Assembly (NCBI GenBank): GCA_027064085.1
Contig: JAMOQH010000141.1
Location: forward strand, 2,259 to 66,258
Reading direction: 5' to 3'
DNA length: 64,000 nt
Source of the DNA: a bacterium
GTDB taxonomy: Bacteria > UBP6 > JAFGXH01
The translations under genes and the position numbers were made by a program. The first letter of the stretch is position 1, and every line of letters begins with the position of its first letter. This document shows positions 7,803 to 64,000 of this stretch, in pieces. The notes under the pieces were generated by a model. The model worked only from the letters and a program-made list of their open reading frames with translations, made no database searches and was not told the DNA's origin.

Positions 7803-9557
7803 CTATTTTGCGTCATCAATCCATTTTCTTACTTTTGATGCTCTTCCATACTTAGGATCGAGCCTTAAAAACTTTTTAAAATATTTAACAGCAGATTTAG
7901 GTTTTCCTAATTGATTTTTATATATCATACCTGTAGTTAAATACGGAGGTGCATATAAAGGATCTGCTTTCATTGCTGCTTTTAATTTCTTTAATGCAGT
8001 TGATGGTTTAGTTGTGGCTAAATTTCGTCCTTCACTAAAAAGAGCTTTTGCAAGACCGGTATTCCTTTTACTTATAGCTCTTTTCTTTTTAATTACTCTT
8101 TTTGTATTTTTTTTATTTCTTGTGTTTTTGTCAATAAAATTTAAGCGTTTTATTACAAGTTCACTGTTTTCATTAATTTCATTCGCAGCAGTCAAATACT
8201 GTCTTGCCAAAGCATAATTCTTTTCAGCTATTTTTTTATCCGTTAATTTAATAATCTTTTCAAAATAATTAGTTTTTTTCTTTTCATATTTTTTACTATA
8301 TGTTGTATGTTTAGGTATTGTTTTAAACTTTTCTATAGATTTAAGATATTTCTTATTATTAAATAATTTTGTCGCATCTATGTAAAGCTTCTTGTTTTTT
8401 AATTCTTTTTGAATTAATTTCATATCTGCTTTCGCACTTTTATTATTTGGACTTTTTTTGAGAATTTGCTTATAAATCCCGTTTGCCTTTTCCCAATTTT
8501 CATCTTTTATCAACTGTTTTCCATTTGAAAGCAAGCCCATTAGCTCTGGTGAGATATCATTGCTGTCATTGCTGTCATTTTCTATTTTTTTATTTTTTGG
8601 TAATTTTTTATTTTCAGCAGTATCATTTTTTAATTTTTTATTGCTATTATCAGTAGTAATATTTTCTTTATTCGTATTATTATCTTCATCTGTTTTATTA
8701 GATGGATTAAAAACAAAAAATAATATAATTGCTAATAACAATACTCCTCCAATAATTGCAAATAGCTTATTGTTATTTTCTGCTCCTGACTTTGATTTAT
8801 AAATATACTTAGAATTTTTATCACAATATCTAAAATTAATTGAAGACATTGAAATAATATCTGATTCTCTTAATTCTAAAATAGTATAAGGATCTCCATT
8901 TATTTTTAATCTACTTTTATTAGCTATATCTTTAATTTTAACACTGTTTTCATTGCATATTATTTTAGCTTCAATATCAGCAAGAGATTTATTTGTAACA
9001 ACGATATCAGCTTCGGGACTTTTACCTATAGTCATAACAGATTTTAAGATGTCAAATGATGTTCCAGCTAAATTAGAATCAAGAAAAACTATTTTATTGT
9101 ATGGTGGTTTTAATGGATAAGAAACATCAAGCCCCTTTTCTATGGAATCACCATCTTCCGTTTTATTACCGGTTATTTCACTTACAGGAACAGGTTTTAT
9201 TTTTTTATCATTTCTAGCTTTATCTGAATTGTCGTCTTTTATTAAAACAGTTTCATCATTATCTTCATTTTCATTAATTATAGTAATCAGATAATCACCT
9301 ATTTTTATTTCATCACCATTGTTTAATTGAACTTGTCCTTCTATTTTTTCTTCGTTTAAAAATGTTCCTACATAGGATTTTGTATCTTCTAGAAAAATAA
9401 GATTATTAGATTTTGTTAGTCTAGCATGCTTTCTTGATACATTTTGCTCTGTTAATCTAATTGTATTTCCTTCTTCTCTACCAATCGTTATTTCTTGCCT
9501 ATAAAAAGCAATCACAGTTTTATTAGACTCATCATCTTTAATAACAAGCTTATACAT
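7803..9557 (-). CDS. Membrane protein with two FHA domains and a C-terminal TPR-like region
   Basis: FHA signature ITIGREEGNTIRLTEQNVSRKHARL, then a second FHA-like MTIGKSPEADIVV...KINGD. One TM segment (FAIIGGVLLLAIILFFVF). Helical repeat tail. Confidence 0.75.
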   Translation of the reverse strand: MYKLVIKDDESNKTVIAFYRQEITIGREEGNTIRLTEQNVSRKHARLTKSNNLIFLEDTKSYVGTFLNEEKIEGQVQLNNGDEIKIGDYLITIINENEDNDETVLIKDDNSDKARNDKKIKPVPVSEITGNKTEDGDSIEKGLDVSYPLKPPYNKIVFLDSNLAGTSFDILKSVMTIGKSPEADIVVTNKSLADIEAKIICNENSVKIKDIANKSRLKINGDPYTILELRESDIISMSSINFRYCDKNSKYIYKSKSGAENNNKLFAIIGGVLLLAIILFFVFNPSNKTDEDNNTNKENITTDNSNKKLKNDTAENKKLPKNKKIENDSNDSNDISPELMGLLSNGKQLIKDENWEKANGIYKQILKKSPNNKSAKADMKLIQKELKNKKLYIDATKLFNNKKYLKSIEKFKTIPKHTTYSKKYEKKKTNYFEKIIKLTDKKIAEKNYALARQYLTAANEINENSELVIKRLNFIDKNTRNKKNTKRVIKKKRAISKRNTGLAKALFSEGRNLATTKPSTALKKLKAAMKADPLYAPPYLTTGMIYKNQLGKPKSAVKYFKKFLRLDPKYGRASKVRKWIDDAK

Positions 9558-9634
9558 TCGCTACCCCAATAATCTTCAATTTGTATTCTATCATAATTTA
9601 TTTTACTTAATCAAGAATTAAAAAAATAATTGCT

Positions 9635-9810
9635 ATAAAATCACATTATTTAAGTGATTTACATTATAGACGATTAAATTATTACTAGTGAGAGGTAATT
9701 ATAAGAATATCACAGCAAATGTTAATAGGAAATTTAACTAACAGGATTCACAACAACCAAGATAGCTATTTATCTTCGCAAGAGAAGCTTTCTATAGGAA
9801 AAAAAGTTAA
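9635..9810 (+). pseudogene. Degenerate duplicate of the flgL promoter plus first ~37 codons
   Basis: About 176 bp, roughly 90 percent identical by eye to 14003-14178. The flgL ATG is ATA here (aggtaattatAagaatatcacagcaaatg), and the frame runs into the 3' end of an opposite-strand gene. Confidence 0.65.
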
Positions 9811-9828
9811 GAAAAAACTAGTGAAAAG

Positions 9829-10152
9829 TTACAATACAGTTACTTTTCCAACATTATAATCACTAATTAAATCATCAAAAATAGACTCCTTATAGCTATT
9901 TGCAATATTCAACAAATCCTTTACTGAATTATCATCTAGTTTAGCTTCTAATCTCATTGTATTAGAAGTATTTTCCACTCTTATAAAATTATCACCATAT
10001 TCAACACTATATTCTATAAAATTATTATCAATAAAAGAATTATCTTTATAGTCTCTGTTGTCTTTACAAGCTTGCTCTTCAACTTTTTCGTGAGTACTAG
10101 AACAACTAATAAAAATTGTAAAAATAAAAATTGATAAAATTAAAAGTTTCAT
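9829..10152 (-). CDS. Small lipoprotein, chimeric paralog sharing the first 34 residues of the 401-aa lipoprotein
   Basis: MKLLILSIFIFTIFISCSSTHEKVEEQACKDNRD is identical to the N-terminus of ORF 10311-11516, followed by an unrelated body. Lipobox FISC. Could be a decaying copy. Confidence 0.4.
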   Translation of the reverse strand: MKLLILSIFIFTIFISCSSTHEKVEEQACKDNRDYKDNSFIDNNFIEYSVEYGDNFIRVENTSNTMRLEAKLDDNSVKDLLNIANSYKESIFDDLISDYNVGKVTVL

Positions 10153-11565: not shown

Positions 11566-13601
11566 TTCTTACCTAAGCGATAGCATCTTTTACACTCATC
11601 AGGCTCATAATTATTAAAGTCAGATGAATACCACATTAAATTATCTATCTTGACTTGATATGTAAAAGAATCATTTGTAAAATCCATATTTAAAATAGAA
11701 GTATTAATAGGCGCTGCTATTCTGTATTTACAAATATCTTCACTATCAAAATCAGTAACACATTCATTATGAAATTTTTTTGAAATATCTTTATATCCGA
11801 CATTGTCTTCTGTATAATAACAAGTTAAATCTTTTTGAAGTAACCATGGATTTAAATTTTCATTTAAAATTATGAATGCAATCACAGCTAAACACTTTTC
11901 AGTATATTGATTTGAATACTCAATATTCTTGCATTTAAGTAAATCAGGTATTGCAATTTCTCTCTCGTCAATAAGCTTATCTACATTTATCCAAGCTTCT
12001 TCATTATTATAAACATCTCTTGCAACATCTTTTACTGTTTCTCTAAAAACACCACATTGATAATAAGATCTATCATCAACATGCCTAATTATTTCTCTGG
12101 CTATATAATATTCTGTATCTAAGTCTAAAGAAATTCCAGCATATTTACATTTTCCAAGAAGCGAATTCTTTTCTTCTCTATAATCCCAATAATCTAATTC
12201 TATAGTCTTAGATGATTCTATAATATTATCAGGAGTAACAAAGCTTACTCCTGATAAATAAGAATCTAAATCAATTCCTGCTACAATTTTATATGCTTCC
12301 CAAGTAACTCTTGAACAATATGTATGCCCTGGAAGAAACATCCCATAGGGCATACCTTCCGTACTTTCTGCAAATGATACTACTGCTCTAATTTCATCAT
12401 CAGAAAGATATTGATACTCTGTTCCATCTAAAATATCTAAAATTCCAGCAGGTTCAACAACCCTACTTCTCACCATATCCCAAGGTTCTGGCTCATTAAA
12501 AAGTTTATATTCATCACTTCCAGGAACTTCATGCTTAATATATGTATATTGATATTTTGAGCGTTGTTCATATCCTGCACCTACAGGCTTTTTTCTGTCA
12601 GCAGAAAAAAATACTTGTTCTGTAGGGTCAATCTTATATCCTTCTTCTAAATTAACATAAGGATCTTTAACTGTTAATGTTGTATGATTATAATATCCTC
12701 TAAGCCACTCATCTAAATCTTTATACCATATTCCATCGTGGTCTAATTCTATACTTAATATATCACCTTTTTTAAAATGATTAAAAAAGTTTTGATTAGT
12801 AGTATAGCTTAATTCTTTTAAAGCTCTTTCGGGAAGTAAAAAAGAGCCTAGTTCTTGTTCTGTTCCAAATGAAGAAGCATAATTAATTAATATCTCATGT
12901 TCAAGTTCATATTCAGAAGAGCTTGAAATAATATTTTTTTCCATAAGTTCTAAATCTAAGTTTAGAACCCCCATATATTCTTCATATTTTATTAAATCTT
13001 TTTCTTTAAAATCTCTTTCCCATCTATTTTTAATAACAGAAATTGCTTTATTTTGAACATAAAGAAGCAAATCTTCATAAGTTTTAAAACCATAATCCCC
13101 AATATTAGTAAAAAAGCTATCCTTAACTTCTTTAAAATATTCTTTATAATCATTTATTGTATCTTTAGATTCAAAAATTATTTCTTGTAATTTACCTTTT
13201 TCAAGATTATTAAAGGTAATAATTTCATCTTGAGTTTTAATCACTTTAGATATAACAAACATTATACTTCTAAACTTATTAGACATTTTTTGTTTGAATA
13301 CTAATAATTTAATTGCTTTTAAATCATAAGCATATAATTCTTCAGAAGTATCAAAAATCAAATAATTATATGATAGATACTCAATATAATTATCCAAGTC
13401 ATTTATATTCATACCAACTTTGTTTAATAATTTAGTAAATTCAATAGTATTATCTTCTGAGATTTTATAGTAATCACTAAATTTTTCAACCGTTTTAAGG
13501 GGTGAGGCAATTTTAAAATTTAACTCATCAAACTGTTCTTTAGTCATTCCCCAAATAGGTATTGCCATAAATAATACCACTAAAATTAAAATATTCTTCA
13601 T
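11529..13601 (-). CDS. Secreted 690-aa protein; central region resembles a permuted papain-fold (YiiX/C92, NlpC-P60 superfamily) hydrolase
   Basis: Signal peptide MKNILILVVLFMAIPIWG. KKGDILSIELDHDG...YYNHTTLTV, followed about 130 aa later by GHTYCSRVTWEAYKI. This is the His-before-Cys order and the yCSxlvweay-like catalytic Cys context of the permuted family. The functional call is tentative. Confidence 0.5.
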   Translation of the reverse strand: MKNILILVVLFMAIPIWGMTKEQFDELNFKIASPLKTVEKFSDYYKISEDNTIEFTKLLNKVGMNINDLDNYIEYLSYNYLIFDTSEELYAYDLKAIKLLVFKQKMSNKFRSIMFVISKVIKTQDEIITFNNLEKGKLQEIIFESKDTINDYKEYFKEVKDSFFTNIGDYGFKTYEDLLLYVQNKAISVIKNRWERDFKEKDLIKYEEYMGVLNLDLELMEKNIISSSSEYELEHEILINYASSFGTEQELGSFLLPERALKELSYTTNQNFFNHFKKGDILSIELDHDGIWYKDLDEWLRGYYNHTTLTVKDPYVNLEEGYKIDPTEQVFFSADRKKPVGAGYEQRSKYQYTYIKHEVPGSDEYKLFNEPEPWDMVRSRVVEPAGILDILDGTEYQYLSDDEIRAVVSFAESTEGMPYGMFLPGHTYCSRVTWEAYKIVAGIDLDSYLSGVSFVTPDNIIESSKTIELDYWDYREEKNSLLGKCKYAGISLDLDTEYYIAREIIRHVDDRSYYQCGVFRETVKDVARDVYNNEEAWINVDKLIDEREIAIPDLLKCKNIEYSNQYTEKCLAVIAFIILNENLNPWLLQKDLTCYYTEDNVGYKDISKKFHNECVTDFDSEDICKYRIAAPINTSILNMDFTNDSFTYQVKIDNLMWYSSDFNNYEPDECKRCYRLGKKILESCPEFINY

Positions 13602-13715
13602 TTTTTCCTTTTTTATAAATAATAATTAAAAATTTAAATCTTTCTATCGTTTTTAAAATATTATTCATAATCAGGAGACCTCTTCCTTAAAGAAATAAAA
13701 ACAAGCTTTTTACGC

Positions 13716-13809
13716 CTTGTTTCTTGTTTCTTGTTTCTTGTTTCTTGTTTCTTGTTTCTTGTTTCTTGTTTCTTGTTTCTTGTTTCTTGTTTCTTGTTTC
13801 TTGTTTCTT
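13716..13809. repeat. Perfect heptanucleotide tandem repeat (CTTGTTT)x13 plus a partial unit
   Basis: Read directly. Units start at 13716 and recur every 7 nt to 13806, then a partial ctt. Intergenic, 115-208 nt upstream of the 690-aa gene start and 260-353 nt upstream of flgL. Confidence 0.95.
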
Positions 13810-14017
13810 CAAAATATTCTCTCTACTAATAAAAAACTTTATCAGAATTTCAGATTTTAGTCAAGAAGTTTTACAAAAATATTTTTATCAATAAAATCAA
13901 TACATTACAGTAAATTAGCCCTAGTGAAACTATAGAGTTTTAACAGACTGATTTTACATTATATTATGATATGAAACCATATAAATCCCCATAATAATTA
14001 CCATAAAATCACATTAT

Positions 14018-14044
14018 TTAAGTAATTTACATTATAGACGATTA
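14018..14044 (+). promoter_or_regulatory. Candidate sigma-28 (FliA)-type promoter of flgL
   Basis: TTAAGTAA-N11-GACGATTA compared with the remembered consensus TAAAGTTT-N11-GCCGATAA (5/8 and 6/8). It ends 25 nt before the flgL ATG and is retained in the duplicated remnant at ~9650-9676. Confidence 0.35.
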
Positions 14045-14068
14045 AATTATTACTGATGAGAGGTAATT

Positions 14069-14956
14069 ATGAGAATATCACAGCAAATGTTAATTGGAAA
14101 TTTAACTAACAGGATCTACAACACCCAAGATAGCTATTTATCTTCACAAGAGAAGCTCTCTACAGGGAAAAAGGTAAATAGAGCATCTGATGCTCCTATT
14201 TCTGCTGAAAAAATTATGGAAATAACAACAAAAGATTCTGATTATGAACAACTTAACGAAAACATAAGATACACCAAGGATTTACTTGACTCAAGTGAAG
14301 CTCAAGTTTCAAGGGGTATTACTGTATTACAATCTATGAGAGAGCTTGCAACAAGAATGGCAAATGATACAGTTAGTGAACAAGATAGAACAGATGCAAT
14401 TAGTGCAGTTAATCAAGCATTAGAAGAAATGCTTAGTATTGCAAATTCTAAACATAATGGAAGATATCTATTTTCAGGAACTACAGATAACATAGAACCT
14501 TTTGACCCAACTAATTATCAATATAATGGAAATAATGATATTAGAGAAGTAGACATTTATGATAATTTGCGAATAGACCAAAATATGCCAGGAAGTGATA
14601 TTTTTACTAATACCAATAATGGAACGGTAAATATTTTTAAATCTTTAACTGATTTTAGAACAGCATTACAAAATAATGATGGTGATAATATACAACATGC
14701 TTTAACCACTCTTGAAGATTCAAGAGAACAACTATCAAAAGCAAGAACAATAATAGGCCACAGTAATAATAAATTAGAAGTAACTATAGAAGTATTGGCT
14801 GTAAATCAATCAATTAATTCAACAGCAAGAGCAGATTTAGAAGATGTGGATATCGCAAAAGAAACAACTAACTTATCTAAATATCAACAAATACTAGAAG
14901 CTAACTATGCTCTAGTTAGTAAAACACAAGGGCTAAGTTTATTAAAATATTTATAA
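14069..14956 (+). CDS. flgL: Flagellar hook-associated protein 3 (hook-filament junction protein)
   Basis: N-terminus MRISQQMLIGNLTNRIYNTQDSYLSSQEKLSTGKKVNRASDAPISA and flagellin-type C-terminal helix (...ANYALVSKTQGLSLLKYL). 295 aa. Confidence 0.8.
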   Translation: MRISQQMLIGNLTNRIYNTQDSYLSSQEKLSTGKKVNRASDAPISAEKIMEITTKDSDYEQLNENIRYTKDLLDSSEAQVSRGITVLQSMRELATRMANDTVSEQDRTDAISAVNQALEEMLSIANSKHNGRYLFSGTTDNIEPFDPTNYQYNGNNDIREVDIYDNLRIDQNMPGSDIFTNTNNGTVNIFKSLTDFRTALQNNDGDNIQHALTTLEDSREQLSKARTIIGHSNNKLEVTIEVLAVNQSINSTARADLEDVDIAKETTNLSKYQQILEANYALVSKTQGLSLLKYL

Positions 14957-55418: not shown

Positions 55419-56942
55419 ATGGTCGTTTTAAGTAGTAAAAATATGACATTTAATGAATTTATTAATGTAGCTATTAATAAAGAAAAGCTTAGTTTATCTC
55501 AAGAATTAAAGGAGAAAATTAAAAAAGCAAGAGATTTAGTTGAAGAATTAGATAAGGGAGATACTCCTATTTATGGAATAAATACTGGTTTTGGATTTTT
55601 GGCTGGAAAAAAGATAGATAAATCGCAAATAGAACAGTTACAATTTAATTTAATTCGTTCTCATTGCACTGCAGTTGGAGAACCTTATAGTGAAGAAGTC
55701 ACCCGTGGAATAATGCTTCTTAGGGCAAGAGTCATGAGTCAAGGATATTCGGGTATAAGAGCAGAAGTAATAGAATTTCTAATCGATTTATTAAATAAAA
55801 ATATTCTTCCTGTTATACCCTCTCAAGGTAGTGTTGGAGCAAGTGGAGATTTAGCTCCATTAGCACACTTAGCTATTACTTTGTTGGGAGAAGGAGAAGT
55901 TTTTTATAATGGTAAAATTGAAAAAACTAGCAATGTTTTTAAAAAGGAAAATCTTACTCCTATTAAGTTGCATTCAAAAGAAGGGCTTGTTTTAATAAAT
56001 GGAACTCAGGCAATGACAGCAAATGGCCTTATTCAGTTATACAGGGCAAAAAATATTTTAAAATCCTCAGATATCATTGTTTCTATTAGTTTAGATGCCT
56101 TAAAAGGTACAGTAAAAGCATTTGACGAAAAGATTTCTCTTATTAGGCCACATAAAGGGCAAATAGATACTGCAAAAAATGTTAGAAATATGCTTAAAGG
56201 AAGCGAGATATTAGTTTCACACGATGGCTGCGGAAAAGTTCAAGATGCATATTCTTTAAGATGTGTTCCACAAGTGCACGGCTCTATCAAAGATGTAATT
56301 AATTATGTTGAAAAAACTCTATTTACAGAAATGAATTCTGTTACAGATAATCCTCTTGTTTTTCCAAATGAAAAAGAAATTATATCAGGGGGTAATTTTC
56401 ATGGAGAACCTATAGCATTTGCTATGGATTTTTTAGGTATTGCAATTAGTGAAATTGCATCTATTTCAGAAAGAAGAATTGAACAAATGGTTAATCCAAA
56501 TTCTAATGATCATTTACCAGCATTTTTAATAAAAGATGAGGGACTTAACTCAGGTTTTATGATTGCTCATGTTACAGCAGCATCGTTAACATCAGAAAAC
56601 AAAATATATGCCCATCCAAGCTCTGTTGATTCTATACCAACTTCAGCAAATAAGGAAGACCATGTTTCTATGGGAACTATAGGCTCAAATAAAGCTGCAA
56701 AAATAATAGATAATGTAGAAAAAGTTATTGCGATTGAATATATGGTTGCATCTCAAGCTTTAGACTTTAGAAAGCCTTTAAAATCTAGTATTGCAGTAGA
56801 AAAGGCTGTTTCTATTTTAAGAGAAAATGTTCCATTTTTAACAAAAGATGAGTACTTAAAACCATATATAGAAACTGCTATTGATATAGTTAGTAGTGGT
56901 AAATTAGTAAAAGAAATTAGTAAAATTATAGATTTAAGCTAG
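55419..56942 (+). CDS. hutH: Histidine ammonia-lyase
   Basis: GSVGASGDLAPLAHL (Ala-Ser-Gly MIO precursor), QDAYSLRC, NFHGEPIA. 507 aa. Confidence 0.9.
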   Translation: MVVLSSKNMTFNEFINVAINKEKLSLSQELKEKIKKARDLVEELDKGDTPIYGINTGFGFLAGKKIDKSQIEQLQFNLIRSHCTAVGEPYSEEVTRGIMLLRARVMSQGYSGIRAEVIEFLIDLLNKNILPVIPSQGSVGASGDLAPLAHLAITLLGEGEVFYNGKIEKTSNVFKKENLTPIKLHSKEGLVLINGTQAMTANGLIQLYRAKNILKSSDIIVSISLDALKGTVKAFDEKISLIRPHKGQIDTAKNVRNMLKGSEILVSHDGCGKVQDAYSLRCVPQVHGSIKDVINYVEKTLFTEMNSVTDNPLVFPNEKEIISGGNFHGEPIAFAMDFLGIAISEIASISERRIEQMVNPNSNDHLPAFLIKDEGLNSGFMIAHVTAASLTSENKIYAHPSSVDSIPTSANKEDHVSMGTIGSNKAAKIIDNVEKVIAIEYMVASQALDFRKPLKSSIAVEKAVSILRENVPFLTKDEYLKPYIETAIDIVSSGKLVKEISKIIDLS

Positions 56943-57076
56943 TTTACTCCATTTGATTCTATATTGTATTTATCATAATATTTATTTATTTATTTTAGAA
57001 AGTCTCCATAAAGTGCAGTTTCAATTTCAAAATCCCTAAGATTTCCCACATACTCTTTCTCGTAATGCCTCTTACA

Positions 57077-57961
57077 TTAAATATTATTTTTCAATAAAAC
57101 ATCATACTCTTTTAACTTCTTATTTAGCTTCTTTATATCATAAATAACATCATCTGCCAAATTTAATAAATTCCTATCAAGACTCTTGCTTGTGTCCATA
57201 TTATCAAGAGTTTCATTTAAGGCATTTAAAATATCAGAATTTGATTTATTATGTATTTTTGAAATCTTTAAAATTTCATTTGCATTTTCTTTTAAATTCA
57301 CCACCTGCTTTTCAATATTTACAGTTATATTTTTTGAGATGTTATTTGTTTGTAAAATCAGCTTATTAATATCATTTTCTTTGATATTTTTTTCTATTTT
57401 TTTTAATTCTTCTATATTTTTTTTAATTTTTGATAAATTTTCATTTTCTTTTTTTAGTCTTTTCTCCACACTGATTAATTCTTCATTTTGCTTTAAAACA
57501 GTGTTATACTTTTCAATAACATCATCAATATTTTTTTTCTTTTCAGAAATCAAAGAAATAAAATTATCATCACTTTTATCTATTTGTGGTAATATTTTTG
57601 TAAAAAAATCAGAAATTCTTTTAGCAGAATCATATTCAAGAGTAATAACTAAGTCTTCAATATCATCAACAGAATCAAAATCAACTTTGCAGGCAAGCTC
57701 TTCTATAAAAGTTACAAGTTTAACATAATTTTCAAATTTATCATTAGAAGTTTTTGCTTTTTTTAATTTATCCGTTAAATTTTCAATATTTTTTATATCA
57801 GTATTTGATAAATTGCCAACAAGTATTTTTTTTTTAACACAACTGTTAGTACTTGAAGTATCCTTTCCCCTAACTTTAACATCTTTCACAACTTCTTTAC
57901 TACAATTAGGACATTTATTTCCCAAATAAACAGGACTATGCCCACAATTTTTACATTTCAT
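57077..57961 (-). CDS. Zinc-ribbon protein with a long coiled-coil body (last gene of the Hsp70-like/AAA+ operon)
   Basis: MKCKNCGH...NKCPNC at the N-terminus. The rest is Lys/Glu/Asn-rich and heptad-like. AAGGGA RBS. Confidence 0.6.
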   Translation of the reverse strand: MKCKNCGHSPVYLGNKCPNCSKEVVKDVKVRGKDTSSTNSCVKKKILVGNLSNTDIKNIENLTDKLKKAKTSNDKFENYVKLVTFIEELACKVDFDSVDDIEDLVITLEYDSAKRISDFFTKILPQIDKSDDNFISLISEKKKNIDDVIEKYNTVLKQNEELISVEKRLKKENENLSKIKKNIEELKKIEKNIKENDINKLILQTNNISKNITVNIEKQVVNLKENANEILKISKIHNKSNSDILNALNETLDNMDTSKSLDRNLLNLADDVIYDIKKLNKKLKEYDVLLKNNI

Positions 57962-57976
57962 TGTTTTCCCTTATTA

Positions 57977-58477
57977 TTATTTTTTAAACCATGAGTTAGG
58001 AAGTCTGACTTTATTTACCTTATCATCATAAAAAGAAAGTCCTACATAATCCTCCTCACCTCCATAATACCAATAATAATCCGTAATTTGATCAGGTTTA
58101 CCTAATTCCATTAAAACCGCAGCCTTACCGTAACCTTTAAAACTCTTCCAAAATTTCATTTTCTCTATTAAATCTGTTGGCACTTCAACAAGTTTTTTAG
58201 AAGAATCAGAAAATTTCTTGGCTTGTTTTGGGTTACTTAATATCTCTTCTAAATCATTTACCCTATTTTGTAATTTTTTAATATCCTCATAAATAGGGGA
58301 CAAATCAACTTTACTTTTTTCTTCATTCCCTTTTGCAAGAGATACTGATTTATCATCTATGAGCATATCCTGATTTTTCTCTGGTTTAACAAAGTAAGCC
58401 TTAAAACTATTACCACATTCAAAGCAAAAATTAGCCTTATCTTCACATTTAGTATTACATTTACTACATATTTTCAT
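57977..58477 (-). CDS. Zinc-ribbon protein with a C-terminal BamE/SmpA-OmlA-like small beta domain
   Basis: MKICSKCNTKCEDKANFCFECG. C-terminal LGKPDQITDYYWYYGGEEDYVGLSFYDDKVNKV follows the lGxPd...W.Y....l.v.F.dgkV pattern. The domain call is tentative. Confidence 0.55.
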   Translation of the reverse strand: MKICSKCNTKCEDKANFCFECGNSFKAYFVKPEKNQDMLIDDKSVSLAKGNEEKSKVDLSPIYEDIKKLQNRVNDLEEILSNPKQAKKFSDSSKKLVEVPTDLIEKMKFWKSFKGYGKAAVLMELGKPDQITDYYWYYGGEEDYVGLSFYDDKVNKVRLPNSWFKK

Positions 58478-58486
58478 ATTTCCCCC

Positions 58487-59011
58487 TTAAAATCCTTTAT
58501 AGATATCAAATCCAAGCATTATTATCAAAATAATTAATAAAAAAATCATCATATTGGTTTTTAAAGCCAAATCATCTTTTTTCTGAATTTCATTATCTTC
58601 AGTTTCTATTTCAATAATTTCTTTTTTTTCTTTATCTATTACCCCACCTTCAATTATTTCTTCTATAACTCTTGCTTCTTTATTATCAACAGGACTAACC
58701 CTTTTATCTAATTTATCCTTTAATAAAGCCACCTTATCCTTAAATTCGTCATCTTCGTCACTAATAGCAGGAAATACAGTTTGATAAAATTTTAACAACT
58801 TTAAAGAAGTATTGTTACATTCAACAACAATATCAATAATATCATCAAGTTCATCTTCTGTTTCTATATTAGAAATATTCTCTAAATTAATATCATCTAT
58901 TATAAATTTAGCAAGCTCTGCTGATAATTTATCCTTTTCTATAGAATTATCTTTCTCTTCATTCCATATTTTCCACAAACCATTAACTTGATGCTTTAAA
59001 CTTTCATTCAT
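58487..59011 (-). CDS. Acidic tail-anchored membrane protein
   Basis: Single C-terminal TM segment (MMIFLLIILIIMLGFDIY). I prefer the start at 59011 (MNESLK) because its 25-nt initiation region is identical to that of the upstream gene; the track ORF starts at TTG 59053. Confidence 0.5.
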   Translation of the reverse strand: MNESLKHQVNGLWKIWNEEKDNSIEKDKLSAELAKFIIDDINLENISNIETEDELDDIIDIVVECNNTSLKLLKFYQTVFPAISDEDDEFKDKVALLKDKLDKRVSPVDNKEARVIEEIIEGGVIDKEKKEIIEIETEDNEIQKKDDLALKTNMMIFLLIILIIMLGFDIYKGF

Positions 59012-59345
59012 TTTACATGCTCCATTTTCAATATTTATCAATTTCATCTTCAAGTATTTTTACCCTTAATAATATTTTAGAAATCTCCTCTCTTAAGTAA
59101 AATGTCTCTGATTTTAATTTTGAAACTTCTTCATTTAATTTATGATTCGCATAAATACTATTAATTTCAATTGTTTTCTTCTCATTTTCAGATTCAACTA
59201 ATTTATACTCTAATTGCATTACCTTATACTCTAATTTCATTACAGATTTAAAATCATAATCATCAATATTCCTTGAACTTATATACTCATCTTCTGGCTC
59301 AACAAAAAATAATTTACTATTTTCATTCATTTTACATGCTCCATT
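59002..59345. repeat. 25-nt perfect direct repeat (59002-59026 and 59321-59345) at two consecutive gene junctions
   Basis: tttcattcattttacatgctccatt on the plus strand. On the coding strand this reads aatGGAGcatgtaaaATGaatgaaa, i.e. RBS plus ATG AAT GAA. Confidence 0.9.
59028..59330 (-). CDS. Small coiled-coil protein
   Basis: 100 aa. Heptad-like MKLEYKVMQLEYKLVESENE...LREEISKILLRVKILEDEIDKY. ATGA overlap with the Hsp70-like gene. Confidence 0.5.
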   Translation of the reverse strand: MNENSKLFFVEPEDEYISSRNIDDYDFKSVMKLEYKVMQLEYKLVESENEKKTIEINSIYANHKLNEEVSKLKSETFYLREEISKILLRVKILEDEIDKY

Positions 59346-60889
59346 AAATCACCTAAATTTATTTTATTTTCTTTTCCTTCATTTTTATCTTTAATGTGAA
59401 TATAATAACATCTATTTTCATCCATAGAAAATGCTATTTGCCATTTATTTCCCCATACAGGATTGGGTAAATACTTACTTAAAGGAGATAATTCAAAAGG
59501 AATATGACCATTTTCAGAATCAATAAAAAGCTTCATTGACCTCTTAAAGGCATCCCTATTAGGCAAACCGATATACTCTTCCTTATAATTTGCAATTTTA
59601 GAATCTTTTAAAGAAATACCTTTATTTAAAGAAATAAAATCAACTTTATTTTTATTTTCATCATAAGTTGTAATTCCAATACTCAAAGGTACAACAGTAT
59701 CCAGCGATATTAATCCAGCTGATAAAATAGCAGCCCCTTTCGCTATTGCAAGGTTTTTATCACTGTCAATAAAAGTAGAATCAAATCTAAAATCAGTTGA
59801 TGCAACCGATGAAAAGAAATCCATAATAGTTTTTTCTACTAAATAGAAATTACAGAATCCACCAACAAGTAAAACCCTAAATTTATCAGGATTATTTACA
59901 TCAATATTATGACTAGAAAATGTTTTTGAGATTTCATCAAGTTTTTCTATTATGATATTTTTTATTTTATCATCAAAAACCTTACATAAATTACTAGGTT
60001 TACAAGGATTTCCACTTACAGTAAATAATTTTCTATTTCTAGATTGCTCTTTTAAATAACGAGGAATATTTTTATCCAAAGTAGTTTTTTGACTAATTTT
60101 TTTGTACTCAAAATCTATAATTGCCTCATAATATTCCTCACTTGAAGAGTGGACATAATTATTTTCTTCAAAAATATTTTGAACAACTGCATCATCATAG
60201 GCAACCCCTGCACTCCCTAATGATTCATGAGTTAATTTGCCTGCACCACTTGATTCAAGTATTTTTACTTCTGCTTTACTTAATTTTGATAAACTAATAT
60301 CAAGAGTTCCACCTCCAAAATCACAAACAAGTAAATGCCCTGTAAAATGAGTATTGTAATTTTTATGATATAAATATGAATAATAAGCAGACGCAGCAAC
60401 AGGCTCACTTACAAGTTTAACATTTTGTCCTATATTTTTCTTGCATATTTCTAGTAAAGTTTCACGCCCTTTATGATTTCCATCTTTAAGCCATATTTCA
60501 GGAACTGTAACAGTAAAACTCTTTATATCACTTTTAGAAAATTTTTGTGTTTTGCAATATTCATCAATAAGATATGAAATATATTTTTCAGCTATTTCTA
60601 CTGGTGTTTCTTTAGAATTTTCAGGCCAGTCAAACTCCTCTAAAATATCAGAATCAGTTTCCTGTAAAAGCATTTTAAACTTTGAATAAACATCATATTC
60701 AGTATTTCCTGTTTTACCTTTTGCATCATCTCCAATTGAGATATCACCATCTTCTTTAGAAACAGCAAAGTAAGAAGGAATATACTTTTCCATTGAGGCT
60801 AATTCAAAATTCATTATACTATCGGTATTTTCATCATAATATGCAATAATACTATTTGTAGTTCCAAAATCTAATCCTATATTTTTCAT
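59327..60889 (-). CDS. Hsp70-like (actin-fold) ATPase with a beta-sandwich substrate-binding-like domain but no helical lid
   Basis: Phosphate-1 GLDFGTTNS, phosphate-2 VCDFGGGTLDISL, adenosine motif VLLVGGFCNF. C-terminal VVPLSIGITT...WQIAFSMDENRCYYIHIKDKNEGKENKINL parallels the DnaK SBD-beta. The protein ends at 520 aa. Confidence 0.85.
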   Translation of the reverse strand: MKNIGLDFGTTNSIIAYYDENTDSIMNFELASMEKYIPSYFAVSKEDGDISIGDDAKGKTGNTEYDVYSKFKMLLQETDSDILEEFDWPENSKETPVEIAEKYISYLIDEYCKTQKFSKSDIKSFTVTVPEIWLKDGNHKGRETLLEICKKNIGQNVKLVSEPVAASAYYSYLYHKNYNTHFTGHLLVCDFGGGTLDISLSKLSKAEVKILESSGAGKLTHESLGSAGVAYDDAVVQNIFEENNYVHSSSEEYYEAIIDFEYKKISQKTTLDKNIPRYLKEQSRNRKLFTVSGNPCKPSNLCKVFDDKIKNIIIEKLDEISKTFSSHNIDVNNPDKFRVLLVGGFCNFYLVEKTIMDFFSSVASTDFRFDSTFIDSDKNLAIAKGAAILSAGLISLDTVVPLSIGITTYDENKNKVDFISLNKGISLKDSKIANYKEEYIGLPNRDAFKRSMKLFIDSENGHIPFELSPLSKYLPNPVWGNKWQIAFSMDENRCYYIHIKDKNEGKENKINLGDLMEHVK

Positions 60890-60900
60890 TATTCTCCCTT

Positions 60901-63531
60901 TTATAATCTTTCTGGAATATCCTCTGCTAATAATTTTACTAAATCATCTTTTGATAAATCCACATTTTCATTTTCTAAAATTCTTTCTCCCAAATTTTCT
61001 ACCATTAAATTAAAACAATTAATCGCATCACCTGCATTTCCAAAATTTTCTTTTTTTAATTTCTTTGTTTTTAAAAATAAATCAAGTAAAGCCTGCTTTA
61101 ATCTTTCATCAAGAATATATTCCTGCTTTTTTGCATAATTTTTTATAACAGTAAATAATTCATCAGAAGTAAAATCATCAAAGATTATTTTTCTTGAAAA
61201 TCTTCTGTCTAGCCCCGAATTATTATTTAAGAAATTATTCATTTCTTTTGAATAACCTGCACCTATAATTAACAAATTTCCATTATATTTAGTCATTGCA
61301 GGCACTAATACATTATTAATAACATCTTTTCCATAGCTTTCTCCTAAACTTCCCTCTGTTAAGCCATAAATTTCATCAATAAATAATATCCCACCCATAG
61401 CATCTTCTATTAATTTCTGGGCTTTAACTTCACTATCTCCAACAACATTAGCTATTAAATCTTTTGCACTAACATCAAGTAATTTATCAGATGGTAAAAC
61501 CCCTAGTCCATTTAGTAGTTTTCCCATTAACCTAGCCACAGTTGTTTTTCCAGTTCCAGGATTTCCAATAAATAGCATATGCAAATTTTGATTTTTTAAA
61601 ACTTTAAGTCCTTTCTTTTCACGAATTTTATTTAACTTAACTCCCTTTATTAATTTATTAATTTGATTTTTAACAGAATTTAACCCTGTCATAGAATTCA
61701 ACTCTTCTAAAACCTCTTCAAAGGAGCTTTTACTATTTATAGAAATGTATTTTCTCATAAAATTAGGAATATCATCTAAAATAAATTTATTTATATCTAT
61801 TTTTTCATTATTTTTACTATTTCTTATTCGTTTTCTTCGTTTATTATCCATCCCTTTATAAACATCTTCTTTTACAGCTCTTGCATTCCCAAAATCTTCA
61901 TCACTTTGATTTGCTGCATGCCATTTATTAATAATTAAAGGTAATTTTTTAGATAATTCATCAGTCATATTTTTTTTATTTTTTAAAATAGTATCTTTTA
62001 AAATCTCATACAACACATCAGAGTTAAAATTAGGAATTGTAATTATATTGTGTTCTGAAAACCTTGACTTAAAGCCTGGATTAGAATTAATAACCTCATC
62101 AATGTGCTTAGGATATCCTGCAAAAATTACAGAAAACTCACCTTTATGATTTTCCATAGCCTCAAGTATTGTTTCAAGAGCTTCCATTCCGAAATCATTT
62201 TCTCCACCCTGTAATAAACGATATGCTTCATCAACAAAAAGTATTCCTCCCATAGCCTGATTTATTAATTGTGAAGTTTTTATAGCAGTATGTCCAACAT
62301 AAGCAGCAACTAAATCTTCTCTAGAAGCTTTTACAAGATGCCCTAATTTTAATAAACCATTTTCTCGAAATATTTCACCAAGCAATCTAGCAATAGTTGT
62401 TTTACCTGTTCCAGGAGAGCCTTTTAAGGCAAGATGTAAGTTTATAGCTATTGTTTTCTTTTTATTTACCGAAACTCTATCAAGAAAAAAATGAGGAATT
62501 TTTATTATTTCAGCCTGTATATTATCAGCCCCCCCCCTTAATTCATTAATTTCATCAATAAAATCATCAATTTTATCTTTAATAACATTGATTCCACGCA
62601 TTTTAGATAATTTTTCTGCTGCTGATTCTTCATTGAGAGTTACACCTGAAAGCTCTGTAAAAGTTTTTTCAGAAAAGTCTTTTTTTTCATTTAATATTCT
62701 TGCAAATTCCTGTAAAGATATTTTATTAGAAACAGAATAAGATGTTATTTTAGGTAAATACTCATCAAACATAGCCCAATCTATTTTATAATCATACTTA
62801 ATTCTATAATAATTAATTGTATTTTTAATCTCATCAATAAGAGGATAACTTACAGGATAAACAGAATCAGATAAATGATTATTTAAATTAAACATTTTTG
62901 AATATAAAAACTGCCATTGCTGATTTCTTTGAAATATTAATTCAAATTGCTCTCCTTGTAAATCAGGTAAAATAAAAATACAAATATTATTATTTTCATG
63001 TCCAAAATTTAACCAACTAGTAAAATTTGCAGCCATCTGCCTTCTTGCATTAGCTTCAAAATTATTAAAAAAATCAAAAGCATCAGATAATATTACCGCA
63101 GTTTTAATTTCTTTTTGTTGCATTATTTCATCTAGTTTTGCAACAACATTTAAGTCATTCATTAATCCAAAAGAGTAAACTCCGTTTCTTGTATTTAAAT
63201 TATTTTTAGCTATAGTATCTTTTGATGCCTTTGCTAACAAAAGCCCTCTTTTTCCTAAAGGACCTTTAGGTATTAAACTATTTGTTTTTAATTTTTTTTC
63301 AAATTTCTTTTTAGAGTCTAAAATTATATCATAAGATGTCTTTTCATAAGTATATATTTTATTTTTGGGATTATATAAGGCAATTCTCTCATATCCTTTT
63401 GATTTTAATTGATAAAAAATTAATTCATCAAGTTTCCTAAATTTTAAATCATCAGAGCAGTATTCATCATGAGTATTTCCATATAAGAAAAAAAAACGCT
63501 CATGAATATTTTCAAAAAAAGATTTTCTCAT
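60901..63531 (-). CDS. 876-aa ATPase: degenerate AAA-like N-terminal region plus two CbbX/SpoVK-type AAA+ modules
   Basis: Module 1: GSPGTGKTTIARLLG, GGILFVDEAYRL, FAGYP...NPGFKSRF. Module 2: GNPGTGKTTVARLMG, GGILFIDEIYGL, GAGYS...NSGLDRRF. The N-terminal ~340 aa carries FFLYGNTHDEY and AVILSDAFDFF at Walker-like positions. Confidence 0.85.
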   Translation of the reverse strand: MRKSFFENIHERFFFLYGNTHDEYCSDDLKFRKLDELIFYQLKSKGYERIALYNPKNKIYTYEKTSYDIILDSKKKFEKKLKTNSLIPKGPLGKRGLLLAKASKDTIAKNNLNTRNGVYSFGLMNDLNVVAKLDEIMQQKEIKTAVILSDAFDFFNNFEANARRQMAANFTSWLNFGHENNNICIFILPDLQGEQFELIFQRNQQWQFLYSKMFNLNNHLSDSVYPVSYPLIDEIKNTINYYRIKYDYKIDWAMFDEYLPKITSYSVSNKISLQEFARILNEKKDFSEKTFTELSGVTLNEESAAEKLSKMRGINVIKDKIDDFIDEINELRGGADNIQAEIIKIPHFFLDRVSVNKKKTIAINLHLALKGSPGTGKTTIARLLGEIFRENGLLKLGHLVKASREDLVAAYVGHTAIKTSQLINQAMGGILFVDEAYRLLQGGENDFGMEALETILEAMENHKGEFSVIFAGYPKHIDEVINSNPGFKSRFSEHNIITIPNFNSDVLYEILKDTILKNKKNMTDELSKKLPLIINKWHAANQSDEDFGNARAVKEDVYKGMDNKRRKRIRNSKNNEKIDINKFILDDIPNFMRKYISINSKSSFEEVLEELNSMTGLNSVKNQINKLIKGVKLNKIREKKGLKVLKNQNLHMLFIGNPGTGKTTVARLMGKLLNGLGVLPSDKLLDVSAKDLIANVVGDSEVKAQKLIEDAMGGILFIDEIYGLTEGSLGESYGKDVINNVLVPAMTKYNGNLLIIGAGYSKEMNNFLNNNSGLDRRFSRKIIFDDFTSDELFTVIKNYAKKQEYILDERLKQALLDLFLKTKKLKKENFGNAGDAINCFNLMVENLGERILENENVDLSKDDLVKLLAEDIPERL

Positions 63532-63533
63532 CT

Positions 63534-63995
63534 TTATTTACTAAGCTTTGTTTTAAATTTTTCAAAATCAAGTTTTGTTTCATCTTGACATGATTTATCT
63601 TCTGTACCTGCCTTACAAACAGGAGTAGAACACTCAACACCTAAATACTGGGTTGTTTCGAGAATCTCCTTTAATCTTTCCTGTCTATAATTCTCATCAT
63701 TTCTACTTCTATCAAAAAATGAAACATTAATACTATTTCTAATACTATCCTCTGATTCCTCCGGAGAATATTTTATAACAATTTCATCATCTCCCATTCC
63801 AAACTTAATATGTAAGGGGTTTCTTAAATCCTCCTTTTCATAAATAGCTTCTTTTAGCACCCAGCCTTTTTGTTCAAATTTAGATGCAAGTACCTCTGCA
63901 AGATCTCCTCTTACCTGAGAAGAAAATACTGAATTTCTAGCTTTATTAACGGTCGTTTCAATTTTATTCTCATATTCATTTATTTCTTTAGCCAT
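63534..63995 (-). CDS. Hypothetical 153-aa protein, first visible gene of the operon
   Basis: Its stop lies 2 nt before the AAA+ gene start. No motif recognised. C-terminal CSTPVC....C cluster. The upstream region is cut by the window edge. Confidence 0.5.
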   Translation of the reverse strand: MAKEINEYENKIETTVNKARNSVFSSQVRGDLAEVLASKFEQKGWVLKEAIYEKEDLRNPLHIKFGMGDDEIVIKYSPEESEDSIRNSINVSFFDRSRNDENYRQERLKEILETTQYLGVECSTPVCKAGTEDKSCQDETKLDFEKFKTKLSK

Positions 63996-64000
63996 TATTT

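Follow-up and report, generated by a model that had tools for sequence, protein, structure and literature searches.

The 64,000 nucleotides of bacterial DNA analyzed here (the window; positions 2,259 to 66,258 of contig JAMOQH010000141.1, assembly GCA_027064085.1, from the lineage UBP6) close with a group of minus-strand genes, at positions 57077–64000, that raises the question of what an Hsp70-like ATPase, a tandem AAA+ protein and a handful of small zinc-ribbon, coiled-coil and membrane proteins would be doing in one operon. As far as gene content is concerned, the answer is that these genes form the 3′ two-thirds of a conserved cassette, the core of which consists of a radical S-adenosylmethionine (SAM) enzyme (hereafter rSAM), a protein of a novel family (X), an AAA+ protein, a lid-less Hsp70 and a helical protein (Y). 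As regards function, gene content and genomic context suggest, with somewhat better than even probability in our estimate, a stand-alone, chaperone-driven and horizontally mobile conflict cassette, i.e., one acting against phages or other invaders.

Coordinates are given as window positions on the minus strand unless a locus label precedes them, with L001–L026 denoting the inspected loci and P-numbers individual homologous proteins. Seven consecutive minus-strand open reading frames (ORFs; g1 to g7) fill 57077–64000 in the ORF list, and on recomputation the junctions and motifs that an initial annotation had reported for them were all present, with intervals of 2, 11, −4 (ATGA), 16, 9 and 15 nt and a ribosome-binding site (RBS) of the GGAG/GGGA type ahead of every start codon. 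These are long ORFs in DNA of about 27% GC and homologues were found for each, so they are not products of chance; the antisense ORFs also listed are artefacts of low complexity in AT-rich DNA, in which a scan of the window for promoters and terminators was uninformative. The initial annotation had rightly seen that the operon is cut by the window edge: its first ORF (g1, 63534–64000) is a fragment, encoding the ~154 C-terminal residues of protein X, whose complete gene specifies 435 aa in an identical metagenome contig (L001 8691–9998). The same contig, used to check the extension, shows that the operon goes on upstream for at least five more genes, giving the order CnuE-like, CnuB-like, DUF2357 protein, rSAM, X, AAA+, Hsp70 and g4–g7. 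Thus, the proposal of one unit of at least seven genes holds insofar as there is one conserved unit, but seven genes do not describe it, as the core begins outside the window with the rSAM gene and full-length X.

The evidence for this core comes from 20 distinct X loci, several of them cut by contig ends, which were compared through all-against-all and iterative searches. In 17 of the 20, the X gene is followed by that of the AAA+ protein, with an N-terminal domain referred to below as D0, while rSAM is found in 12 loci (often overlapping X), Hsp70 in 13 and Y in eight, all of which are to be read as rough frequencies. Depending on the genome, the AAA+ protein combines D0 with two or three active modules of the CbbX/SpoVK clade. 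Conservation across genomes, which the initial annotation had made the measure of whether these genes belong together, extends to g1 (X), g2, g3 and g7, all members of conserved families, but not to g4, g5 and g6, which are lineage-specific. The cassette of Desulforhabdus sp. TSK, which has no CoCoNuT (coiled-coil nuclease tandem) nearby, is 46% (rSAM), 31% (X), 36% (AAA+, D0 included) and 37% (Hsp70) identical to the operon considered here. A further CoCoNuT-free cassette is carried by the mobilizable Calothrix plasmid pCAL6303.02, another, in a betaproteobacterium, has HipA, MqsR and an AAA_15 ATPase as neighbors, and others are found in metagenome-assembled genomes of Anaerolineaceae and Desulfobacteraceae and in environmental contigs, such that the core without CoCoNuT is present in Desulfobacterota, Cyanobacteria, Chloroflexota and Betaproteobacteria. 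Insertion sequence (IS) elements are among the cassette neighbors. Some other genomes encode the AAA+ protein as a fusion with a trypsin domain, and elsewhere a gene for a CHAT protease adjoins the cassette.

Two of the loci, on pCAL6303.02 and on a second contig of cyanobacterial type, share a conserved five-gene array with three DO-GTPase paralogues (L009 16375–22045 and L026 14707–19972), back to back with which stand the genes for X, the AAA+ protein and a zinc-ribbon coiled-coil protein, and an Hsp70 gene is near. In L015, an Hsp70-family protein (P0074) is fused to the same zinc ribbon and to DO-GTPase2, and its gene adjoins GAP1-N1, TIR, VWA and GrpE-like genes. As for the position of the operon in its own lineage, a related genome, GCA_054075425.1, is ~82% identical in nucleotide sequence over the flank carrying a histidine kinase and hutH, and synteny stops exactly at the 3′ end of hutH. 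At the position of g7, this genome has a different convergent gene, with a PD-(D/E)xK-like C-terminus (window 56929–57076 compared with L024 11511–12269). The synteny break indicates that the region is accessory, in support of the accessory-looking position, convergent with hutH, that had been remarked on from the window alone.

We also observed a distant variant of the X–AAA+ dyad (L005 10001–14004), in which an FHA-domain protein is encoded between X and the D0-containing AAA+ protein. The AAA+ copy is there reduced to one module by the contig end (a cluster-mate has 845 aa), and the 10 kb upstream contain housekeeping genes and no rSAM or Hsp70 gene.

Protein X is a novel conserved core protein without a name in annotation resources, having no match in Pfam, NCBIfam or PADLOC, nor in a search of PDB sequences. 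The family is nevertheless large: among representatives of clusters formed at 50% identity, an exhaustive profile search returned 959 with E ≤ 1e-3, of which 741 reach E ≤ 1e-10; a word-indexed protein search finds only four homologues of X and one of D0. The AlphaFold2 (AF2) model of X (predicted local distance difference test score, pLDDT, 88; predicted template modeling score, pTM, 0.83) is made up of long helical hairpins and two small sheets, to which Foldseek matched no PDB or BFVD entry at E ≤ 1e-3, the best PDB E-value being 0.2. This comparison also showed no vWA-like fold, and a resemblance of the C-terminal sheet to Aha1/START-like domains was weak and not significant, so that this assignment was dropped. 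An invariant feature is the N-terminus, which reads Met-Ser-Gly(-Glu) (L001 8691–8702): Met-Ser-Gly is present in 18 of 18 inspected loci and in ~120 of 125 Met-initiated representatives, and is disordered in the AF2 model. It is also the only place where a recurrent Ser-Gly is found, which is of note in connection with the question of a glycyl-radical substrate, and the tail could be either a tag for pore engagement or a target of the radical-SAM enzyme.

Directly downstream of X, g2 (60901–63531) encodes the AAA+ protein. It was described initially as having two full modules with Walker A, Walker B and NPG..SRF motifs, and both Walker sets are indeed complete (GxPGTGKTT and ILF[VI]DE). The first module, D1 (about aa 330–600; 61732–62544), has GSPGTGKTT, ILFVDEA, a YVG pore loop and NPGFKSRF; the second, D2 (about aa 601–876; 60901–61731), has GNPGTGKTT, ILFIDEI and an AAA_lid_6 domain, but reads NSGLDRRF in place of NPG..SRF, and a third, degenerate domain had been missed. 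Pfam (PF00004 at 5.6e-30 over two matched stretches, AAA_lid_6 at 1.5e-12), NCBIfam (SpoVK at 2.5e-117, EccA at 1.7e-106, CbbX at 4.7e-97) and the nearest solved structures (CbbX, 3zuh/3syl, at 3e-43 for D1 and EccA1, 9lur, at 5e-39 for D2) place g2 by sequence in the CbbX/SpoVK/EccA clade of classical AAA+ ATPases. Orthology to any one of these is a different matter, as all scores remain below the equivalog cut-offs (390.6 bits against 422.95 for SpoVK, 357 against 466.65 for EccA and 324.7 against 459.25 for CbbX), the N-domain is not of the TPR type, and no cognate neighbor genes are present in the window or L001.

The missed domain, D0 (aa 1–300; 62632–63531), has no GK[ST] P-loop and reads LYGNTHDEY, without the P-loop lysine. 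In Foldseek searches with its AF2 model (pLDDT 82), all 50 top PDB matches were AAA+ proteins (Vps4, Yta7, ORC/Cdc6, RFC, Msp1 and p97 among them); the probability was as high as 0.99, with modest E-values (1.5e-3 to 2e-2) and TM-scores (0.20–0.41). D0 could not be explained as a duplicate of D1 or D2, with hhalign not significant and a profile search against PDB sequences empty; as sequence profiles give no link to D1/D2, its AAA+ origin rests on the predicted fold, on the basis of which we describe it as a putative third, degenerate AAA+-like domain. Within D0, an invariant GPLG (residues 90–93, window about 63250–63262) stands inside an otherwise variable, low-confidence disordered loop (78–111) that sits at the position of pore loop 1. 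Because D1 has a canonical YVG pore loop, g2 probably acts as a polypeptide translocase in which two tiers are active and one is degenerate.

The Hsp70-like protein (g3, 59327–60889) is comprised of a nucleotide-binding domain (NBD), a linker and the β-part of the substrate-binding domain (SBD). It matches Pfam HSP70 (PF00012) at 1.1e-16 over profile positions 2–495 of 599 and aligns with residues 3–501 of E. coli DnaK; as the chain ends at aa 520, corresponding to about DnaK residue 509, where the lid begins, the protein is lid-less. The phosphate-1 (DFGTTNS), phosphate-2 (DFGGGTLD) and adenosine (LVGGF) motifs are present, together with SEPVAAS and the catalytic K, E, D and T, and residues 398–512 align with DnaK 393–501 through the hydrophobic linker, PLSxG and the β-sandwich, from which we predict an ATPase-competent Hsp70. 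The description of g3 as a lid-less Hsp70 with these three motifs is thus borne out by Pfam and at the level of individual residues, even though the protein falls far short of the equivalog cut-offs for DnaK (64.8 bits against 822) and HscA (78.4 against 708). The family to which it belongs has 462 matches at E ≤ 1e-5. J-domain, GrpE and protease profiles of Pfam, likewise said to be missing, have no match at E ≤ 0.1 among the window proteins, and Pfam recognizes no DnaJ or GrpE among the 12 operon proteins. With no lid, no J-protein or GrpE and no ClpB M-domain, this is not a canonical DnaK/DnaJ/GrpE or ClpB locus. We note that some Hsp70-family members from outside the window (P0045, P0050 and P0069) have, in place of the SBD, C-termini that by eye show Rx4H (HEPN-like) or PIN-like acidic patterns, which Pfam does not recognize.

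Y, a helical protein of ~340 aa, is encoded directly downstream of Hsp70 in L003, L016, L018, L019, L020 and L023. In the operon considered here, its counterpart is g7 (294 aa, 57077–57961), the family of which is matched to Y by hhalign with a probability of 94% (E 1.2e-7), while the Y hidden Markov model (HMM) finds the L002 homologue of g7 at 3.6e-8; g7 is accordingly described as a fusion of a zinc ribbon to a member of family Y. The idea that Y is a split-off Hsp70 lid, or derives from an Hsp70–Y fusion, was rejected, as longer members of the Hsp70 family carry no Y-like extension.

Upstream of the window edge, directly before X, is the gene for the rSAM protein, which has 201 aa and contains CX3CX2C and GGEP; NrdG matches it best (5.5e-31), the score of 107.6 bits being below the cut-off of 126.1. 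The start codon of rSAM overlaps the stop codon of the DUF2357 gene in L001, L002 and L007, lineages whose proteins are about 50–70% identical to one another. Neither a glycyl-radical enzyme nor an RVxG[YF] motif came to light in the locus, for which no systematic search was made, and a glycyl-radical motif downstream of the zinc ribbons, as in NrdD, was discarded given that no Gly is conserved past CG[WF].

The DUF2357 (McrC N-terminal) protein itself has 1374 aa (DUF2357 at 4.1e-9, with a weak, sub-threshold S1-like similarity), and hhalign of the Hsp70 family against its family gave no significant sign of an Hsp70-like domain. It is preceded by a CnuB-like protein of 895 aa, with ~480 aa of coiled coil and an McrB-like GTPase (GVSGTGKS, LLDEMN and MNED as a variant of NxD), and the most upstream, CnuE-like protein has two Rx4H (HEPN) motifs as judged by eye. 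An NxD McrB-like GTPase with a long coiled coil, accompanied by a DUF2357 protein, is among the hallmarks of a Type III-A CoCoNuT, a McrBC-type RNA/DNA restriction system with a layout like that of this module (Bell et al., eLife 2024; PMC11090510). Published Type III-A systems have a CnuCD with Hsp70-like NBD/SBD and HEAT repeats, a CnuE with two HEPN domains and a CnuH helicase upstream (PMC11090510). We therefore refer to the genes just upstream of the window as a putative Type III-A CoCoNuT-like module, the subtype resting on sequence motifs and not on all structural hallmarks; in this lineage, translation of the cassette is coupled to the 3′ end of the module. The CnuB-like GTPase (L001 1258–3945) also matches the PADLOC candidate model PDC-M26A at 2.7e-27, and this unnamed candidate may be equivalent to CoCoNuT. 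In L007, another gene (>944 aa) lies further upstream.

What, then, would such a cassette do? The conflict function suggested by the initial annotation is the best fit among the readings that we weighed, and several lines of evidence point to it. These are the fusion of the operon to CoCoNuT in three lineages, carriage by a plasmid and the neighboring HipA, MqsR and IS genes, the variable set of zinc-ribbon-headed repeat proteins and protease fusions, the break of synteny at hutH, and the sharing of the Hsp70 family with DO-GTPase conflict systems, arrays of which lie beside X–AAA+.

Taking this as a starting point, a mechanism can be outlined in which the AAA+ protein would form a hexameric translocase, with D1 supplying the canonical YVG pore loop. 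By analogy with CbbX and the Rubisco tail, the hexamer would engage the disordered Met-Ser-Gly tail of the always-adjacent X and remodel its long helical bundle, while Hsp70 and Y would clamp the exposed segments and couple sensors or adaptors headed by zinc ribbons to the switch. The radical-SAM enzyme, usually encoded right before X, might modify or arm a protein partner, most plausibly X. The output would be the release or activation of effectors, such as the protease domains that AAA+ proteins of other genomes carry and, in this lineage, possibly the HEPN RNases of CoCoNuT and/or the membrane protein g5. This specific tail-threading scheme is tentative, and in our view more apt to be wrong than right in its particulars. 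A further reading that we consider unlikely is a new type of immune switch in which radical chemistry would license an unfolding machine, with the NrdG-like enzyme placing either a covalent modification or a radical on the exposed Ser-Gly N-terminus of X or on a zinc-ribbon partner, and the AAA+ protein, Hsp70 and Y reading or consuming this mark and thereby triggering effectors. If true, this would represent a signaling logic of radical-SAM, AAA+ and Hsp70 components without described precedent, serving by itself and also as a supplement to CoCoNuT and DO-GTPase systems.

A number of points have to be set against a conflict function. No recognizable toxin or nuclease is encoded in the part of the cassette that lies in the window, the base composition of which is the same as that of the rest of the window. 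The models of PADLOC-DB v2 give only noise-level, generic or partial matches (the generic P-loop models TRIP13 and IetA, the partial PDC-M61B at 4e-6 for Hsp70, and pVip at 8e-6 for rSAM), and no copy of the cassette turned up in phage records or viral contigs, an observation that we count here although it is neutral for defense. The scan of the genome collection gave five loci and that of the metagenomes six, and the co-occurrence frequencies, taken from 20 neighborhoods, are correspondingly rough. In addition, tail threading, X as the substrate of rSAM and zinc ribbons as adaptors are all steps that we infer, and the presence of the cassette in the oxygenic Calothrix argues against an O2-labile glycyl radical, which is thus unlikely.

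The function could instead lie with the neighboring restriction system, and we regard it as possible, if rather unlikely, that the cassette is an integral accessory arm of Type III-A CoCoNuT, in which a Cdc48-like AAA+ protein and Hsp70 would act on ribosomes, nascent chains or the CoCoNuT complex to support RNA-targeted restriction. The overlap of the rSAM start with the stop of the CnuCD-like DUF2357 gene, preserved over three lineages despite their divergence, would be well accounted for in this way, and the cassette, which shares a predicted operon with the CoCoNuT-like module, would fit a known habit of CoCoNuTs, as Hsp70-like NBD/SBD units and tandem AAA+ extensions of the SpoVK family have been reported in Type III-A operons (PMC11090510). 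However, the published SpoVK extension is located 5′, with a TerY-like VWA gene on either side, has only its C-terminal ATPase active and comes with LRR and β-barrel fusions and a glycine-zipper partner (PMC11090510), whereas the cassette lies 3′ of CoCoNuT, without a VWA gene called in L001, L002 or L007, and its AAA+ protein has two intact modules and no C-terminal LRR or β-barrel fusion. The Hsp70 of the cassette likewise keeps its ATPase motifs, unlike the degenerate CnuD. X and Y are undescribed in that work, as is rSAM, a radical-SAM gene being mentioned nowhere in PMC11090510 or its two supplementary text files. Finally, the cassette stands alone in most loci: 17 of the 20 X loci have no CoCoNuT genes in the recovered stretch (which is short for several), and these include the full cassettes of Desulforhabdus, Calothrix and the Betaproteobacteria.

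A dedicated housekeeping chaperone or maturation system, serving the assembly, repair or activation of a specific client such as a radical enzyme or a large complex, in the manner of CbbX with Rubisco, EccA with type VII secretion (T7SS) or SpoVK, appears quite unlikely to us. It would explain why every recognizable domain is of a chaperone or activase type, why the closest solved relatives are CbbX and EccA1, and why no toxin domain is found in the window. Yet the phyletic distribution is patchy, with carriage on a plasmid and a loss of synteny at the insertion point, the partner arrays and protease fusions differ from genome to genome, and every equivalog score is sub-cut-off; moreover, the loci with gene lists have no Rubisco, T7SS (EssC/WXG100), sporulation or glycyl-radical-enzyme genes called. 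Membrane or complex remodeling, which had been raised as an alternative in the initial annotation, finds no support beyond the non-conserved g5. A machine in which the AAA+ protein and Hsp70 deliver or extract g5 or secreted factors is very improbable: while g5 has a C-terminal transmembrane (TM) anchor and EccA-type AAA+ proteins serve type VII secretion, g5 is confined to the closest relatives, no membrane or secretion component occurs in the loci beyond its family, still less a conserved one, and there are no WXG100, EssC or translocon genes.

That the operon matches no characterized system, as was claimed from the window alone, holds in the sense that the cassette lacks the defining features of the nearest kinds, but it is appended to a described system, Type III-A CoCoNuT, and draws on an Hsp70 family that DO-GTPase conflict systems also use. 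The cassette is most likely akin to NTPase-centered conflict systems, with CoCoNuT extensions (PMC11090510) and the systems of Kaur, Burroughs, Iyer and Aravind (eLife 2020; PMC7159879) as the nearest kinds. The latter comprise DO-GTPase/GAP1 systems with Hsp70, as well as a MoxR-vWA “FtsH ternary” system in which a tandem AAA+ protein with one inactive and one active module is paired with a radical-SAM enzyme (PMC7159879). They resemble the cassette in surrounding a constant NTPase/chaperone core with variable partners, namely non-enzymatic repeat or lectin-like proteins, trypsin- or caspase-like peptidases and zinc-ribbon heads, and also in the Hsp70 family itself and in the cyanobacterial adjacency of DO-GTPase arrays to X–AAA+. 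In contrast, no DO-GTPase, GAP1, MoxR or vWA gene is present in the window or in most cassette loci. Within D0, the DO-GTPase1 model scores 24.7 bits, short of its cut-off of 27, which is the only sign of a DO-GTPase in the operon, and GAP1 is absent. True DO-GTPase genes do stand beside X–AAA+ in L009 and L026, and L015 contains a GAP1-N1 gene; for MoxR-vWA, no MoxR or VWA Pfam match was found in the cassette loci with gene calls. The invariant dyad of the cassette is instead X with an AAA+ protein of the CbbX/SpoVK clade, and the words “CbbX” and “SpoVK” have no occurrences in PMC7159879.

The better-known relatives of the individual proteins differ in similar ways. CbbX, EccA and SpoVK are the nearest sequence relatives of D1 and D2, sharing the classical AAA+ type, aromatic pore loops and AAA_lid_6, but the cassette protein has three tandem domains where they have one, lacks the TPR domain of EccA and is found in an unrelated genomic context. 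CbbX, the activase of red-type Rubisco, threads a terminal tail of its client. With the Hsp70–ClpB/Hsp104 bi-chaperone and canonical DnaK–DnaJ–GrpE, the operon has in common an Hsp70 gene alongside that of a multi-ring AAA+ translocase, as well as a conserved NBD, interdomain linker and β-part of the SBD, but it lacks the lid, J-protein, GrpE, ClpB M-domain and N-domain. rSAM, for its part, is small like the NrdG/PflA activases and has the same CX3CX2C and GGEP motifs, but its NrdG score is sub-cut-off and it is also present in oxygenic cyanobacteria. No description of a cassette of rSAM, X, AAA+ and Hsp70 was found in the full-text literature searched, beyond the scope of which papers may exist.

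Should the conflict function prove correct, the cassette would be a widespread defense module that annotation has left unnamed, with X forming at least 741 clusters at 50% identity that extend over five or more bacterial phyla and one plasmid. It would bring together three enzyme classes not yet seen jointly in immunity, i.e., an activase-type radical-SAM enzyme, a CbbX-type translocase and an Hsp70, and would link the genomics of CoCoNuT to that of DO-GTPase/Hsp70 conflict systems through the Hsp70 family and the CPxC...CxxCG[WF] zinc ribbon. If the cassette were a housekeeping one, it would constitute a new client-specific chaperone pathway. The Met-Ser-Gly tail of X, the GPLG loop of D0 and the Walker motifs of D1 and D2 offer experimental handles.

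The zinc ribbons that recur in these comparisons follow a shared pattern, M-x-CPVC-x10-CxxCG[WF][DE] followed by a Trp-containing helix, and nearly every cassette locus encodes one to five proteins headed in this way. The modules behind the heads are LRR, WD40, Lcl_C, FGE-sulfatase (C-type-lectin-like), TPR or coiled coil, and the corresponding genes are located at 9157–9876, 12707–14185 and 14318–15049 in L003, 13247–19123 in L016, 15521–16339 in L009, 12443–13309 in L017, 1510–4198 in L022 and 1557–2864 in L023. Both of the N-terminal zinc ribbons originally proposed for the operon are present, with g6 and g7 each beginning CxxC-N10-CxxC, and the two proteins are divergent members of this set. 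The 166-aa g6 (57977–58477), absent from L002 and L007, has a short stretch of coiled coil after its ribbon and then a small domain at the C-terminus; its Pfam matches, to Zn_Ribbon_1 and DZR, are weak, and it matches the zinc-ribbon head of the L003 Lcl_C protein at 8e-6 (phmmer).

The acidic, C-terminally anchored protein of the initial annotation is g5 (58487–59011), which has 174 aa, an isoelectric point (pI) of 4.4, a predicted TM segment at residues 148–170, and homologues in L002 and L007. Its first ~100 aa could share ancestry with the Y N-terminus, but g5 as a paralogue of Y was considered and dismissed, the similarity being weak (hhalign E 7e-4, probability 26%). Between Hsp70 and g5 lies g4 (59028–59330), a lineage-specific coiled-coil protein of 100 aa with a weak homologue in L002 only. 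A perfect direct repeat of 25 nt, AATGGAGCATGTAAAATGAATGAAA, borders the gene on both sides, with two exact matches in the window where none is expected by chance; the copies, at 59321–59345 and 59002–59026, span the RBS and start codon of g4 and g5, respectively, and encode MNE as the first codons of each. Because of this flanking repeat, g4 looks like a local insertion or duplication at an original Hsp70/g5 junction, and in L007 a g5-like gene directly follows that of Hsp70.

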